From Eledone cirrhosa (taxonomy: Eukaryota), in the NCBI GenBank assembly GCA_964016885.1, contig OZ024740.1, forward strand, positions 261,640,001-261,704,000: a stretch of 64,000 nucleotides of DNA. Reading direction: 5' to 3'. The notes below the pieces were generated by a model. It had not been told where the DNA came from and did not search any database. It saw only the letters and a program-made list of their open reading frames with translations. Positions 10,487 through 62,798 of the stretch are shown one piece after another. Within the stretch, counting starts at the first letter, position 1; every line of letters starts with the position of its first letter. The position numbers were made by a program, and so were the translations under genes.

Positions 10487-10511
10487 ATGTAATGTGAGTT
10501 CTTCGAATATT

Positions 10512-10675
10512 AATAATTGTTTCTACTTTTGGCACAAGGCCAGCAATTACCCAGTGTATTACTGGTACTTTATTTTATAGACCCCGTAAGGATGAAAGGC
10601 AAAGTAAACCTTGGCGGGATTTGAACTCAGAATGGCAGGGGCCGTAACTCTATGCGTCAAAGCATGGCGTCCGAC
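10512..10675 (-). mobile_element. tRNA-type SINE (family A)
   Basis: Reverse complement of the copy at 16958; B-box-like GTTCAAATC; ATT tail. Confidence 0.85.
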
Positions 10676-10860
10676 ACATAGAATTACGGCCCTTGCCATA
10701 TTCGATTCATTTGCAATTATGCAAACAGCCCCTCTTTTAAAGCCATGTCAGTAGAATGAGCCCCCCTTCGTGCTCTTGTGTAAACAGAACTTAAAAAAGA
10801 TTACATTTATTGTATTCAACCATGTAGAGAGATAATTGTTTTGTTTTTTATTATCATTAT

Positions 10861-10924
10861 TGGAAGTATCGGTAGAGGGTCGGACGCCCTGCTTTGACGC
10901 ATAGAGTTACGGCCCTTACCATTC
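10861..10924 (+). mobile_element. SINE family A, 5' half
   Basis: Matches 16958-17020 up to ...ccattc. Confidence 0.85.
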
Positions 10925-10977
10925 ACAGTTGCTTTTTATTTTTGCTCTCGTTCCGTTCGACATACGTTTATTGCAAG

Positions 10978-11710
10978 ATGGCGCCCATGGTTTATTTGGC
11001 TATGAACGTGGGGGGGGGGGGTGTACTGCTAGTTCTCATCTTAGCTACCTATTTCTTCTACCAACACCTACAAAAGACATGGTATGTGCGAGAAAAACAC
11101 AGCTGCTCTTCGTCGGACTGTAATTGTAAATTGTCAGTGTTGCGAGCTGCCAGGAGGCAACTAACACTTCACATTCTCAAGCAGGGTAACAGTGGTTTGA
11201 GCCGAATACAAAACAGCCTGAGTACACAGTTCCATTATTTGGCCCTTGGTCAAGTCCATATATCGAATAAATATGTTCGAAACCCCATGGTTTTTCGTTT
11301 AGAAAATATACCATCTCGTCCGTGGTGGTATGGTGGCCCAAATACTGCAGCAGATAATGACAACCATTTAAGAACATTCCAAAATAATTTGGAAGTCCCA
11401 AGTCAGAACTTTGAGGATATTTCTCAAGAATTCTTTCAGGTTTGGCCGGATAATGGCAAAGTCCCAGGACAGTGGAAAGTGAATAATGATACAGATGAAG
11501 GTCGCTGGTGTGTGTTTCATTTTCTGGACAAGGGACAATGGGTAATAAAAAACACCGCTCTTTGTCCTCGGACAACAATTGTTCTTCAATCGCTGCCCAA
11601 CCTGATTGCTGATACCATGTTTGGCCATGTCTCATTCTCCGTTATGTACCCTGGTACTAACACTTCTGAACATTTTGGTGTTACTAACACAAAGATCCGA
11701 TGTCACATGG
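10978..11710 (+). CDS. ASPHD2: Aspartate beta-hydroxylase domain-containing protein (ASPHD2-like), first coding exon; possibly an orphan duplicate
   Basis: aagATGg start, N-terminal hydrophobic anchor, CSSSDCNC motif, then CPRT...FGHVSFSVMYPGTNTSEHFGVTNTKIRCHMG, recognised against ASPHD2 [38 protein letters not shown] donor at 11710/11711. No downstream exons identified. Confidence 0.85.
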
Positions 11711-11812
11711 GTAAGTTTCAATGGGGTATTTTAATTTAACCTCGGATTTCCTTTCATGTTACTCAGTGTGTATATGGTGCTATAGTTCCAATCGTGAGTC
11801 GCCGTTAAATGT

Positions 11813-11918
11813 GTTAACTTTGCCTTTCATCCTTACAGGGTTGATAAAATAAAGTACCAGTAATGTACTGGTAATTGCTGGCCTTGTGCCTAAAGTAGAA
11901 ACAATTATTATTATTATT
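11813..11918 (+). mobile_element. SINE family A, 3' half
   Basis: gttaactttgcc...gtagaaacaa(tta)n matches 17041-17146. Confidence 0.85.
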
Positions 11919-14900
11919 GGCGACCTACGTAGGAAATCGTATTATCGTGAGCTCCACAAAAGTTTGTTGTTTTCAGTTGTTTCAAATTGCCAGTTATGGA
12001 AACCTTTTGTTGTTAAGTGTTTCTAAGTTCACATATATTGCTTTCTGAAAAGGACACTCAATAATATTGGGGCCTTGAGCCCAAAATTTAAACTTTTATA
12101 ATTATCAAACAAAAACTTTCTTTGCAAAAAACACATGGACGGCTTCCAGCCACACAAAGCTGACAGCCTTCCTAACAGACTAAGATCTCCCACCACCACC
12201 ACCATTGTAAATATTACTACGGTTGCCAACACTAAAAATATAAGGAGTGGCAATAATTTAAATTTGTCAAACGCAGACATTCATTTCCCGCCATTACCAA
12301 TAACAGCAGGTGTTAAAGCCGCCACCCCTACCACCACAATGTCAAAAAGAACAACCAACACCACTGATACCACCACCACCACCACCACCACCATCACAGC
12401 GACAACAGAAACAAAAAATAAATTATTATCTCGTGACATCGAAATGGATTCACCCAGAATCGACTCTTCCACGCCGAACACCACTGACACCACCACCACC
12501 ACCACCACCACCACCACCACCACCACCACCACCACCACAACTGAAACTAAAAATAACATAACAAAAATAACAATAACAACAACAGAAACAACAACAACAA
12601 CAATGAGAATAACAACAAGAACATCAACACCAGCGAAAAACAAAATGTGTCATTTGCCAAAGCGGCCAAGAAAAGCGAAACAATCGAGGTAAGCCAGGAT
12701 GAATTGAATGAAGCCAAGCGAATGGTAAAAAAAAAGATGGGTACAGGGTCGGCCTAACCCCCCATCTAATAAAATGGAGCATCGGCGCCTATGCACCGTG
12801 TCATATCGGACGATAAACACAAAATCGCGCCGAGTGGAACGGCCATCCGAGTCCCAGATACAGAAAGCTTTGGGACATGTGTGGGCGAAAAAAACCCACA
12901 TCAAACGTGGACAGAAATATGGAACCGTGGACGTGTTCTTTGGAACCCCACAGGAAGCCAGAGAGCACTCCATGGCCTCATTAAGAAGTGACGAGTTCAC
13001 ATTCGTCCCAAGCTATTGTGGTCAGAGACTCGTGAAGAACAGGGTGACCCACGTTCCGCCGGCCATCGAAATTCCTGGCTAATGGCTGCCATCCTCGCCG
13101 ACATCGAAGCCAACACAAAAGTAATTGAAGTAACAAAAGAAAAGCAGGAGAACTGGTCCGGATCTGGGATGGATCTCATGATCCAAGCGGACCAATAAAA
13201 CATAGATAAAATTCCAGAGGTGATTGACCTCAATGACGGCAGCCACCTCACCGTAATAGTTGAGGGTAGAAGGCCTAGGTATGTCGTTTGTGGCGAAGGA
13301 ACCTAAAGTCTTTTTGCCCTCAGGTTAAAAAGTTGATGCCACCTCTCCTACCCACCCCAGTGACTCAACCATCAAAATCTGCAGCAGAAATGGCAGCAAC
13401 AACAGAAGCAACTATAGCAGCAACAGCCCCAGCAACAGTAACAAAACTAACACCACCACCACCACCCACCGCGCCAGAATTAGCACCAGCACCTCTGCCA
13501 TCCACCAAGCCACAACCAAAACCAAAACCAACGCCTGTGGAGGATTTTCCACTCCCCGACCTCTCGCAACTGGAGACAGATTGTGACGACGAGGAGGAGT
13601 GGGAAACTATATCTGGAAAACGAAGAAAAAAAAGAGAACCCTAAAAAGACAAAAGCCCTCTTCTTTCGCCCTCCAAAAACACAATGCAGGGTGAAACAAA
13701 CAAACAACCTAATAAAAAATTTAAGACAGCCCTGCCACCACACACACCAGCATCACCAGTCCCATCACCACAAACACCAACACCATCACCATCATTTACC
13801 CCAACACCACCATTACCAACACCACAAAAATCACCAACAAGCGAAACAGAAACAAACGCACAACAAACGCAAACAAAACAAAGCAACCAAAACGATACAC
13901 ACTACACAGCATTGAATTTGAACAACAACCAATTATTACACTACATCCAACACAAGACCAGCATCACAGAAAAAGACTACACAACACCCCAAAATCTCAC
14001 ACCACCTCCACACATACAAATCACTCGCATCACACAGAAAGCGTACACGACACTAAAATTAAAATTCCCCAAGGACACGGAGACTTCCGACAAGCACTCT
14101 CCTGGAGGATTTATAAAGACATCCTTCCGGAGGAGACCACAAGCAGTGAGAAGGACGGAAAAACCATCCTTCCTCCACGAGAAGAGAGGTAAGTGATCTT
14201 TCCCAACTTTTACCACTCCTTTTCAACATGACCTCACTCACAATAGGCAGCATAAATGCGCGTGGCTTGGGGTCGTCATGGAAGCAGGGCCACCTGCTCA
14301 ATGGCCTCAGGTCACTAAACATAGATGTGGTGGCCATCAGCGAGACCAGAATCTCCGAAGACGAGCCTTCACACCGATCTTCGGCGGCTACGATGTGTAC
14401 GCATCTCCCAGGCGTCCTGGATCGGGGGGAGGGTTTGCTGTGCTTTTTCGGAGAGGCTTGGATCTCGCCATACGGGCCATCTTTCTGGACCCAGAAGGTA
14501 AGTTGGTGGTGCTAGACGTGAGCAGCGGAGACGGGCAAGCTTTCGAGCTAGTGTCCGTCTATGCCCCGACAGGAGCAGGGCGGCCTGATTTCTTCTGGCG
14601 TCTGGAGACCTTTCTTGGAACATCCCGCTCTTTAGTGTTAGTGGGCGACTGGAACGGGATCTTAGATGCACGCTGGGACTGTGTGGGATTAGCGGATAGG
14701 GTGGAGGGTGCAAGAGCCTCACCAACCTGCCCAGGCGTTTTGAACTGTCTAACAGGTACCGATTGGATTTCCCAAATGTGCCAATGTGGACTTGATAAAT
14801 CGCATGATAAATCGCATAGGGCCATCCAGATCATATCTAGATAGAGTATTTTGTAGGGAAATAGATAGGTCTAGCATAGGCTGTCCATATTTCAAAATAG

Positions 14901-16950
14901 TCGACTACACGGACCAAAAATTCGTGATCTGTGAGGTTGACCTAGATAGGCTTCATAGACAGGGACCCGGCTACTGGAAGCTAAACGCATCATTAACAGC
15001 GCGCAAGTCCTACGGAGACCGGATTAGCGAACTAGTTAAGCGGGCGTTGACGGGGGCCATCGTCAACAACAAATGGTGGTTTGCTCTGAAAAGAGCGATT
15101 AGAATAGAGTTCATTAGGTTTAGTAAGGCTTTAGCAACAGAGAAAAATAGAGCAGAGGAAGAACTAGTTAGAAAATTAGACGAGGCGCTCAGTAAAGGCA
15201 TCGCGACCAACGTACTGTGGCAAAATTGGCCCTTGAGCAATTCTTCAATGCAAAGCAGGAAGGCTGCGTTATCAGAGCTAGGGTGCGTGCTCTCAGACAC
15301 GAGAGGACGAAAGCCGTTCAATGGGCCCGAGTGGCGGAGGCGCGTCGTGGCAACAAAGCCACGATCCGGTCTTTGGTGGACCACGACGGGCGCTTTTCAG
15401 CGACATTTCACTCATCTGTTCGGATCGAGGGATGAACTTTAGTGCCTACCTCGACGGACTGCCGCGACTCACGGCCACTGAGGCGGAGTGTTGCGAAAAG
15501 CCGATAACAGCCGCTGAAGTACGGGAGGCAATGACTGGCTGCACAAGGGGTAAACCACATGCTTTGGATAGTCTGTCCTATGAACTTTACGTACAGATGC
15601 CAGACTTGGTCGGAGGCCTCTTGGCGGACATCTACTGCAACTGGCAACAGAACGGGAGAATTCCCAGCTCTGTGAGCCGAGGAGCGGTGGCACTGCTGAG
15701 AAAGGATCCGAACAAGGGGGATAACATAGAAAATTTCAGGCCCATAACTCTGCTAAACTCAGAGTTCAAGATTTTGGCTAAGGTGCTAGCAAAAAGGTTG
15801 TGGTTGGTGGTCTGGTGGGAGAGGCGCAGAAATGCGCCATTCCAGACAGATCCATCAACGACAACCTCCACCTCATGCAAGGTGTGGTCGCCGTTTGCTA
15901 GACCCGTCTTACCCCAGCTCGTCTCCTTGACGGAGCTGCAGTCCTGGGCCAAGCGAAGACCGAGAGGGAGCGCTTGGAGACTGGAATGTCTTCAGGCGCT
16001 CACAGCCCTCGACCAATCGGGCAATGTGATCGGTGGAAACTTCACCTTGGCGTTCTATAGAGGATTAGTGGAGGGGAAGAGCGACGACGTACTTGGGGAA
16101 ACTCTAGGCGTCGACGAAAATCAACTAGCCAATCTCTTCGGAAGAACTTTCGGGCCGGGGCCTATGGACAACTTCCAGATATCCCTGGCCTGGCAGTGCT
16201 ACCGAGGAGCTTTGCAAGTTCGGGATAAACTCTACAGGCATGGAGGTGCCGTCAGCCGGGCATGTCCGAGATGCGCGCAGGGCGACGAAACCGTCCTGCA
16301 CGCACTCGTCCAGTGTCCGAGCATTGCTTACTTGTGGGTTTATGTCGAACACCTGCTGTCACGTGTAGGACGGGTCCGGCTATCAGCTGAGTCCATCGTG
16401 AGGATTGCCCCGCCCTCTTCCTTTAGCAGGGAAGGGCAGGCAGTTTTTATCTGTCTGATGGCCATGCCGAAAGAGATAGTATGGTGGACACGTTTGAAAG
16501 GGCTGAAGACGAGCACTTACCTCTTCGGTGATGCCCTGATTGACTTTTTCAAATTTCATTTGAAAAGGAAAATCAGGGTAGAGAGGGAAGTGCTCTCTTC
16601 CCAGCATTTTGTTGAAAGATGGGTGAGAGAAGCAAGAATGGCCCGAGTGAATGGGCCTACTCTGAGTATATATCTGTAAATTAAAGGTGGAAAACTGGGA
16701 GAGGGCACTTGCCTTGGTGGTCAGGGTCACTGTGGCCTTTTACTGGGCTTTCTCCACAAATGTCACTCCGAAGTCTCCCCCCTATTGGGGAATTTTTCAT
16801 TGTTATTTTTTTGTTACATCCTCTGTTTTATTTTTTTTACAAGCAGAAATGCCCATTTGTACCGTCCTGTATTGTCCTGTACTGTCCTTAATGTCTACTT
16901 TATGTAAACCCTTGTGGTTAATAAAGAAAGCATTATTATTATTATTATCG
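11919..16950 (+). mobile_element. Tx1/L1-clade LINE, both ends present, RT core deleted near 15880
   Basis: Broken ORF1 about 12135-14196. ORF2 from 14228: LTIGSINARGL, DVVAISET, SVYAP, VGDWN, NFRPITLLNSEFKILAKVLA, CPRC...ETVLHALVQC, stop at 16679. AATAAA plus (ATT)n tail. Confidence 0.92.
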
Positions 16951-16957
16951 GTGAATT

Positions 16958-17146
16958 GGCAGTATCGGTAGAGGGTCGGACGCGATGCTTTGACGCATAG
17001 AGTTACGGCCTTTGCCATTCTGAGTTCAAATCCCGTCGAGGTTAACTTTGCCTTTCACCCTTACAGGGTCGATAAAATAAAGTACCTGTAATGTACTGGG
17101 TATTTGCTGGCCTTGTGCCAAAAGTAGAAACAATTATTATTATTAT
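16958..17146 (+). mobile_element. SINE family A, complete copy
   Basis: A-box-like tggcagtatcgg, B-box-like gagttcaaatcc, (ATT)n tail. Confidence 0.9.
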
Positions 17147-17147
17147 T

Positions 17148-17317
17148 AGTATCGGTAGAGGGTCGGACGCCCTGCTTTCCAGCATAGTTACGTCCCTTTA
17201 CGATCTGAGTTCAAATCCAGCCGAGGTTGACTTTGCCTTTTATCCTGACGGGGTCGATAAAATAAAGTACCAGTAATGCACTGGGTAATTGCTGGCCTTG
17301 TGCCCAAAGTAGAAACA

Positions 17318-17362
<45 letters not shown>
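17148..17362 (+). mobile_element. SINE family A variant, in tandem with the previous copy
   Basis: Same head and body; long (ATT)n tail. Confidence 0.9.
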
Positions 17363-60349: not shown

Positions 60350-62798
60350 CTCTCTAATGTTAACGTATGCAGACGATATATAAATTTTATTACAATCAAA
60401 CCCTGATTGGGATTCCTGCGAAGGAATCAAAACAAGTTGAGGGAAGAGAACGACAACCACCTTAGAGATGCCACCTATTCTGATGGGAATACAACAATTA
60501 TGGACCAGCCATTCATACTGCCATCAAGCTTCAGGGAGGACCACGTTACATGTATAAACGTACGCAAGATACAATGGCCTATGTTGAAAAATTTGGTCGG
60601 TCGGACCCCTTCATTACATTTAACTCAAACTGGACAGAAATATCAAATGGATTATTTCAAAATCAAAACTCGAAGGATCGACATGTCTTGATTGCTCGCG
60701 TGTCCCATGAAAAGAAAAAAAAACAAATCTTCTGGCTCCTAAAAGAAAGAAGAATCTTTGGTGAGCTTAGTGCCTGGATGATCACTATAGAATGGCAAAA
60801 GGGAGGTCGTCCTCACTTTCACACACTAATCTAATGCAAGGAGAAGATAAGACCAGATGATGATGTTAAGATCATTTCAGCAAAGTTGCCTGATAAAGAT
60901 GGTGATCCAGAACTCTTTGAATCCATCAAGTCCAAACTCATCAATGGTCCATGTGGAGTCATCAATCCAGTCTCTCCCTACATGAAAGATTAATAATGCA
61001 GCAAGCATTATCCTGGAGCTTTTATTCAGGAAACTCGGACTGACAATGTTGGATAGCCTCTTTATTGTAGGCGTAGACCAGAACATGGAAGCAATACTGG
61101 AAACCTAACAGTTCGAGAAGAGGAGCTGACCATAGACAATCTATGGGTAGTCCCACACAACGAACTATTGTGTAAATTTCTAAAACCCATAACAATGTTG
61201 AGTATTGCGTGTCTGTCAAAGCAATAGTATATGTCACGAAATATATCAACAAAGACAGTGACATGGCTACCTTTGTTAATTAAAATGAATGCAATGATAG
61301 TGGGCTGGGTGAATCAAACAGTATCAGACAAGTCGATATATCTCCAGCAGATGTATCTTTGGATTTGATATCCACCAACGCCACACACCAGTGGTCAACA
61401 TATCAGTCCGCCTGGAAAATGGATAGAGAGTGTGCTTCAACCAGCTCATCAGTTGGTACAAGCACAACCTAACACTACTCTAACTGCTTTTTTTAAAACT
61501 GCCAAAATGATGAATTTGCGCGATCTCTCCTGTATGCTGATATTCCAAAATACTACACCTGGACGAATTGTAAGACCTGAAATCGAAGGAAGCGGAGGGG
61601 GGGGGGGGGGTATTTAGTGGAAGGTCATGAAGTCAAGGAAAGTGATGCTATTGGGCATGTTTACAATGACCACCCCAACAACAGAGAGTGCTTTTGTTTA
61701 CGGCTACTTCTGCATACTGTTCGAGGACCAACGTCATTTGAAGATTTCAGTTACTTCAGAGGAAAGGTATGCGCAACATACCAATAATCATGTAAACAGA
61801 ATGGACTCCTGAATGACAATGGACATTAGAAGAAGAGCCTAGAGGACGCAGCAGTCACTCGAATAACCAGTAAAATAAGACAGTTGTTTGTTATCATGCT
61901 CACAGCATGTGCAATGGATGAAGCTCATCTACTCTGGCAGAAGTACAAACACAATATGTCGGACGACTATCTACACCTAGCATGAAGACATCAATTAAGC
62001 TCTCTGCAACCTGTCCCATCAATTTCAGGCAATAACGAATACATTAGCTAACTACGGGATGCTAGAGCCAGAAATGGAGGTAGCACAAGAAGTTTTTCAG
62101 GAGACAAACTACGATATTCAAACATTGCGTAAGTTTGTGGATGAAAATGAACCTCGATTGGTGGATGACCAGAAATACGCCTACCACATAATGGAAAACA
62201 TTCAAAGTGACATGGGTAGACTTTTCTTCATCGATGTTTCTGCTGACACAGGTAAGACATTCTGCGACCTGATACTGAAGCTTGGAGCATGGGCTATGCT
62301 ACTTCATAATCTAGATCTTCCCAAACTTTGCCATGGCAAAAGGCTCATCACCAAAAATATGATGCCCAATGTCCTAGAATACTGGTGATAATTGTTTTAG
62401 TCCCAGAATACCACTGAAGTCAAATGATTTACCATTTGAATTTCAATTTCCTATCAGACTCGGTTTGGTTATGACCATCAATAAATCTCGAGGGCAATCA
62501 TTGAAAGTCTTTTGGTTGAACCTGGCAGATCCTGTCTTTTCACATGGTCAGCTCTATGTTGGTATTAAATGGGTTGGAAACCCTGATTGTCCTTTCATTG
62601 TAGCATCACAGGGCAAAGCAAAGAATGTTGTTTATCCAGATGCTTTGAAATGAGCAATGTCGTAACGACTACTTCAATGACAAACACACAGATTGTAATT
62701 CCTTTGTCATATAGTTTATAAGGAATTCTGAAGTCCCAACCTGACTTCATAGTGTTACTTTGGGAGAATATACAGGCAATACTGGGAAGCTCTGCTAG
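60350..62798 (+). mobile_element. Helitron Rep/helicase remnant with probable 3' end
   Basis: ILPSSF, QDTMAYV...DPFITF, IEWQKGGRPHFHTLI (HUH motif), YVTKYINK, MLLHNLD, MTINKSRGQSL, FSHGQLYV; decayed hairpin plus CTAG at 62795-62798. Confidence 0.9.

Follow-up and report, generated by a model that had tools for sequence, protein, structure and literature searches.

Capture of an ASPHD2-like first exon within a SINE of the octopus Eledone cirrhosa

Introduction

Retroelement parts enclosing or adjoining host sequence have been described in several forms. These include LTR-flanked retrocopies (Tan et al. 2016, PMC5131818), which arise by a double template switch dependent on microsimilarity, tripartite chimeric retrogenes made by LINEs (Gogvadze et al. 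2007, PMC2104539), class 2 templated sequence insertions (Onozawa and Aplan 2016, PMC5110952), and LINE-1 chimeras in which first exons are fused in sense to LINE-1 at splice junctions (bioRxiv 10.1101/2025.02.02.635956). Template switching is also cited, in PMC4758252, as a route of module exchange among SINEs. The term 'SINE' does not occur in the main text of PMC5131818, and a search of the literature (subscription journals and supplements lay outside its scope, so that absence is unproven) yielded no case of an exon enclosed by SINE sequence. Within the same scope, no paper covering both ASPHD2 and octopus was found.

The locus reported here, in a 64,000-nucleotide stretch of the Eledone cirrhosa assembly (the window), resembles each of the first three systems in part. 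With LTR-flanked retrocopies (PMC5131818) it shares host sequence lying between discontinuous retroelement halves, microsimilarity at both fusions and replacement of part of the element, but its carrier is a non-autonomous SINE of ~190 bp, its template was unspliced, and it gives no sign of further retroposition. Like the tripartite chimeras (PMC2104539), it consists of three RNA-derived pieces in one orientation with a 5'-truncated retroelement at the 3' end; those chimeras, however, join three different RNAs, with a full-length cellular RNA first, and have clear direct repeats, whereas here the outer parts belong to one SINE family and are collinear, and a duplication is unreadable in the ATT-rich flanks. 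Class 2 insertions (PMC5110952) offer a distant template, an intact donor, a microdeletion, microhomology and the lack of poly(A) as points of likeness, while the junction position and a subfamily mismatch of the present chimera point to SINE reverse transcription, leaving an origin from a break putative.

Structure of the chimera

It is confirmed that a SINE in the window encloses a captured host exon, present as a single copy and with exact boundaries (Table 1). Both SINE halves and the insert are directly joined and share one transcriptional orientation. The two collinear halves claimed in an earlier note on this DNA are matched by an intact SINE near 16950, aligning on the same strand with 10848-10930 (87%) and 11813-11918 (94%), but the 5' half begins at about 10859 and not at 10861. 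This half is 5'-truncated by ~9 nt, retains an A-box-like motif and ends just before the B box; the 3' part is itself a 5'-truncated retroelement with a normal tail. In raw reads of other SINE copies, the counterparts of 10924 and 11813 are separated by a B-box segment of 20 nt, so that exactly 20 nt of SINE have been replaced, in agreement with the ~20 bp given in that note. Joints in reads that skip the insert were considered as an empty allele and rejected, since they derive from other SINE copies.

Table 1. Features of the chimera and of the adjoining LINE (window coordinates)
Feature	Position	Strand	Basis or remark
SINE 5' half, tRNA-like, subfamily 'a' (our naming)	10859..10924	+	alignment to SINE copies
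5' junction microhomology TTC, common to SINE and parent	10922..10924	+	junction alignment
53 nt from directly upstream of parent ATG	10925..10977	+	alignment to parent
Copied coding exon 1 of ASPHD2-like gene	10978..11710	+	ORF and alignment to parent
GT donor and first 107 nt of parent's intron 1	11711..11817	+	last 5 nt common to SINE
3' junction microhomology GTTAA	11813..11817	+	junction alignment
SINE 3' half with (ATT)n tail	11813..11918	+	haplotype commoner in subfamily 'b'
Neighbouring decayed LINE, outside the chimera, inserted in the ATT tail of the SINE	11917..16930	+	Pfam endonuclease and zf-RVT matches

The composition of the insert had been read correctly, down to an intron piece then put at about 100 nt: 53 nt of upstream sequence and exon 1 are followed by 102 nt of intron outside the shared GTTAA. 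The ATG context of the copied upstream piece resembles a putative YY1/TISU motif. The open reading frame (10978-11709) comprises 244 codons without a stop, one further exonic nucleotide and a phase-1 GT donor at 11711, compared with 241 codons in the parent; it encodes an N-terminal hydrophobic stretch and has gained 9 nt at a poly-G run. Unspliced read-through of the donor reaches a stop at 11737-11739. Within the 3' SINE half are an acceptor-like pyrimidine tract whose AG ends at 11838, a TAA stop in frame, and AATAAA at 11849.

Among 200,000 random SINE-parent joins, microhomologies of at least 3 bp and at least 5 bp occurred by chance in 5.2% and 0.47%, respectively. No read or contig among those listed bridges either junction, contigs breaking in SINEs, and the assembly is therefore the sole basis for the junctions. 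Contigs carrying alleles of the copy do occur in runs X1 and X2, possibly the assembled sample, and RAD-seq runs X5 and X6 gave no coverage of the insert. One X1 contig joining copy alleles to the parent's intron was taken as a graph merge and left out of the evidence.

The parent gene on C19

When the 3.0-Gb genome was searched with the insert, two matches were obtained, the copy itself and a locus on another chromosome (C19:9312144-9313031, minus strand), and a protein search likewise returned two. The C19 locus covers window positions 10922-11817 with 853/897 identical (95%), and similarity ends exactly at both SINE junctions, as had been predicted of a parental locus; with such identity ending at both junctions, chance is of no concern. 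It belongs to a two-exon ASPHD2-like gene with a 7.1-kb intron 1. In the genome search, exon 2 of this gene was detected on C19 alone, the other match being a distant paralogue (41%) on C4. The window thus does not hold the sole ASPHD2 locus, the circumstance that the earlier note had set against its own reading, and its proposal of an unspliced host-exon copy inside a SINE is borne out by this parent and by the retained donor and intron start. Two of the differences between copy and parent (L002 1545 and 1931) appear as alleles at the parent itself.

Further SINE-ASPHD2 chimeras, which the earlier note had proposed to look for, failed to appear, neither the DNA nor the protein search of the genome detecting a copy of the chimera at another site. 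With a single extra copy found, the chimera has not spread; a Pack-type mobile gene-carrying element would be present in several chimera copies, whereas the two matches here are copy and parent. The term 'gene-fragment capture' is apt insofar as a host exon lies within a SINE, and inapt for a mobile chimera, there being one copy, with its B box gone.

A 465-nt contig from run X4, whose kind is unrecorded, spans only the 3' part of exon 1 and is one letter off the parent and ten off the copy; it departs from genomic sequence 3 nt beyond the donor, leaving 118 letters unaligned. The first three bases of exon 2 are also those of intron 1, so that the contig fits a spliced parent transcript, and we infer that the parent is likely transcribed and spliced. 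Contigs with copy alleles are absent from X4, which has no bearing on expression. Head-to-head with the ASPHD2-like parent, ~1.2 kb from its ATG on C19, lies exon 1 of a gene resembling dynein axonemal heavy chain 10 (L002:3563-3778, plus strand, E 7.8e-11), and a promoter shared by the two genes is possible.

The SINE family

The SINE was characterized in a 1.264-Mb sample, composed of the window, 20 stretches beside the two loci of copy and parent and 100 stretches at fixed round coordinates, none selected for SINEs. It is ~190 bp long, is represented by 115 copies with the 3' core, and falls into two linked subfamilies, 'a' and 'b'. Between 10400 and 17600 no Rfam match reached the gathering score, all matches being sub-threshold. 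Named octopus SINE families include OK and OR1. A further family name, OR2, appears in PMC4758252.

The two halves of the chimera look like members of different subfamilies. Its 5' half is of type a, and the diagnostic base in its 3' half, at 11891, occurs in 2/60 near-full copies of type a versus 17/32 of type b (Fisher p 4.5e-8 for linkage to subfamily). The exact 34-nt 3' haplotype of the chimera has 87 matches in the genome; at the 51 distinct loci examined, the 5' half is of type b in 34, type a in two, mixed or missing in eight, and unclassified in seven, including the chimera. A search with an intact hybrid brought up many type-a copies that differ by one base from the chimera's 3' half. 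Of the 30 closest copies, 23 pair a type-a 5' half with the neighbouring 3' variant of the chimera, and four of the 30 also carry the diagnostic base, so that intact look-alikes exist. With these look-alikes, and with the signal residing mainly on one base, the likelihood ratio contributed by the subfamily mismatch is estimated at only ~6.

Truncation in this family is concentrated in one zone. Excluding the chimera, 15 of the 21 5'-truncated copies in the 1.264 Mb start at SINE positions 68-97, a count that sees starts only up to position 100, while in a separate count three truncated copies start at 98-127. The 3' half of the chimera starts at position 97. A hairpin is predicted over the first ~90 nt of the SINE in both subfamilies, and the truncations cluster at and within it.

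A survey of split SINEs in the same sample reduced 244 merged hits to 13 collinear pairs, namely the chimera, six pairs with gaps of 31-52 bp and six wider pairs, two of which (L180 and L102) were inspected and rejected as split single elements. At 10506-10699, a SINE on the minus strand, cut off at its position 26, precedes a short fragment of itself in inverted orientation. This fragment ends near position 74, close to the end point of the chimera's 5' half, and the arrangement looks like fold-back at the hairpin. Five exact matches to the chimera's 3' haplotype at ~209-bp spacing form a tandem SINE array at C17:28205105-28206324.

Flanking repeats

The LINE in the tail of the chimera, whose family is putatively Tx1-like by resemblance, has relatives that behave alike: all 11 of the other copies examined start after a TTA run, and three sit behind SINE copies. 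A first look yielded 2037 candidate copies of this family, with a preference for TTA runs, SINE tails among them. An apparent 16-nt target-site duplication was rejected, as its end is the LINE's own 5' end. With the downstream flank displaced by the LINE, and ATT-rich sequence on either side, the locus offers no informative target-site duplication of the kind that would surround a template-switch chimera. Together with the chimera, this LINE and the SINEs of type a and type b behind it form a tandem array at ATT repeats (11917-17337). Fragments of a Helitron-like helicase (PF14214, E 8.9e-25) are found at 60484-62388.

Copying direction and decay of the copy

The presence of exon 2 only on C19, an asymmetry in CpG-type decay (five changes on the copy versus one on the parent) and the polarisation of amino-acid changes all indicate copying from C19 to the window, and on this comparison of sequences we count it as shown that C19 is the source and the window copy the derivative. 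Polarised with two octopod outgroup proteins, the 11 amino-acid differences assign seven to nine to the copy and two clearly to the parent. Those on the copy include changes from P to L, L to P, D to N and K to N, at residues conserved in the parent and in both outgroups. The outgroups consist of protein only, so that synonymous changes are unpolarised.

Divergence per lineage is ~2.4-3.7%. The comparison of dN/dS proposed at the outset gave a pairwise value of 0.19-0.35, which mixes both branches, and, if neutral rates are equal, an omega for the copy of 0.35-0.74 with p for neutrality between 0.008 and 0.30, depending on assumptions. With the best-supported polarisation, in which nine changes fall on the copy and the poly-G cluster is omitted, p is 0.09-0.30. 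The size of the gain at the poly-G run differs between sources, the assembly giving +9, one X3 contig of depth 4 giving +8 and one X1 contig giving +12, and this discrepancy renders the open frame uncertain there. The copy is probably a relaxed pseudogene and a non-functional fragment, although some constraint may remain. It is no processed pseudogene with introns removed and a poly(A) added, as the donor and 107 nt of intron are retained and exon 2 is lacking.

Encoded protein

The 244-codon frame matches the aspartyl-asparaginyl beta-hydroxylase family (Pfam PF05118, E 2e-15) over positions 2-104 of the 157-position profile, and its nearest proteins are those of Octopus sinensis (80%, named ASPHD2 at NCBI) and Argonauta hians (68%). 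The resemblance extends to the His aligned to AspH His679, which is kept in the copy. Unlike members of the family, the copy is without the 75 residues of exon 2, which align to AspH His725 and Arg735, the former being the second iron ligand and the latter the 2-oxoglutarate binder. With exon 2 only on C19, the copy is without a second metal ligand, and the absence of both residues means that it encodes no complete enzyme. An active ASPHD2/AspH-type hydroxylase has a complete catalytic domain with both His and the Arg; the C-terminal part of that domain is missing here, as the earlier note had surmised. At residue 229 of the Octopus sinensis protein (P0002), Arg takes the place of the His that aligns to AspH His679 in parent, copy and Argonauta; either the sequence contains an error or the catalysis of this orthologue is altered.

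Origin of the chimera

The parent, the direction of copying, the exact junctions, the microhomologies, the loss of the B box and the absence of exon 2 are established whichever mechanism is preferred. Break repair and reverse-transcriptase switching, the two routes offered by the earlier note, both stay candidates, and our tests tilt towards the latter without closing the question; the ranking of the two expresses our judgement and no computed posterior. The account we lean towards, with modest confidence, is that a LINE reverse transcriptase working on SINE RNA switched to a nascent ASPHD2-like pre-mRNA, leaving a probably non-functional, single, unspliced copy. Target-primed reverse transcription would begin at the ATT tail of the SINE, copy ~100 nt, and stall just before the hairpin predicted for the first ~90 nt of SINE RNA. 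The enzyme would then jump via GTTAA into intron 1 of the pre-mRNA and copy exon 1 and a further 56 nt beyond its ATG, presumably stopping close to the 5' end of the transcript. The cDNA end would join the SINE 5' half via TTC, by a second switch onto SINE RNA or, alternatively, by annealing to a SINE resident in the target site, the 3' part of this SINE being lost. The LINE would have inserted into the chimera's tail later. With the B box gone, Pol III transcription of the element is not expected, and the element has not multiplied.

This switching account is favored by the sense orientation, the unspliced template, a 3' junction within the truncation zone and the subfamily mismatch. Against it, collinear halves with a 20-nt gap would have to be a coincidence if two SINE templates were involved, and microhomology and orientation are compatible with break repair as well. 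A plausible though less probable competitor is a break in one existing SINE that was patched by 888 bp from C19 (as DNA or as cDNA of the pre-mRNA) through microhomology-mediated repair, with deletion of 20 bp, that is, a class 2 templated sequence insertion. Such a patch explains the collinear halves more simply, and the microdeletion, the microhomology at both ends, the intact distant donor and the lack of poly(A) or duplication at the insert ends are features of that class (PMC5110952). Intact SINEs with nearly the same a/b haplotype do exist (L085, L095, L206, L216), but such hybrids make up ~3% of type-a copies (2/60); moreover, the position of a break would be free, yet the 3' junction falls in the truncation zone of the family, and the sense orientation would be a 1-in-2 chance.

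Whether the product could function is a separate matter. A working mini-gene, splicing from 11710 to the AG at 11838, using the AATAAA of the SINE and encoding a membrane-anchored, catalytically dead ASPHD2 fragment, is in our view improbable. The frame has stayed open after ~5% divergence with its donor kept, the SINE half supplies an acceptor-like tract, a stop four codons on and a poly(A) signal, the AG is a variant that few copies of the SINE family share (6/92), and the point estimates of omega are below 1. Conversely, the changes on the copy strike residues conserved in the parent and both outgroups, the best-supported polarisation gives no rejection of neutrality (p 0.09-0.30), the varying poly-G gain makes the frame uncertain, and no promoter sequence beyond 56 nt upstream was copied. 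Even less credence is given to the combined scenario, in which a double switch between two SINE subfamilies would have captured the first exon and created, in one step, an expressed two-exon mini-gene with SINE-derived acceptor, stop and poly(A) signal, its truncated membrane-anchored ASPHD2 being under weak constraint. An assembly artefact, or a segmental duplication flanked by unrelated SINE fragments by chance, could be invoked where no contig among those listed bridges the junctions and SINEs are this dense (115 copies with 3' core in 1.264 Mb), but it is very improbable, since copy and parent differ at 44/897 columns with asymmetric CpG decay, copy alleles are present in X1 and X2 contigs, and each end of the insert meets SINE sequence with single-base precision and shows microhomology.

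Significance

As a single event that left one probably dead copy, the chimera has little bearing on octopus biology. If the reverse-transcription reading holds, it would provide a base-resolved case, in a mollusc, of a SINE, as opposed to an LTR element or a LINE, sandwiching host coding sequence derived from unspliced RNA. Octopus genomes are rich in SINEs, and whether split SINEs with unique inserts repeat this orientation, junction position and subfamily mismatch is a question that can be asked cheaply genome-wide. On that reading, the locus shows how short mobile elements can pick up host genes.
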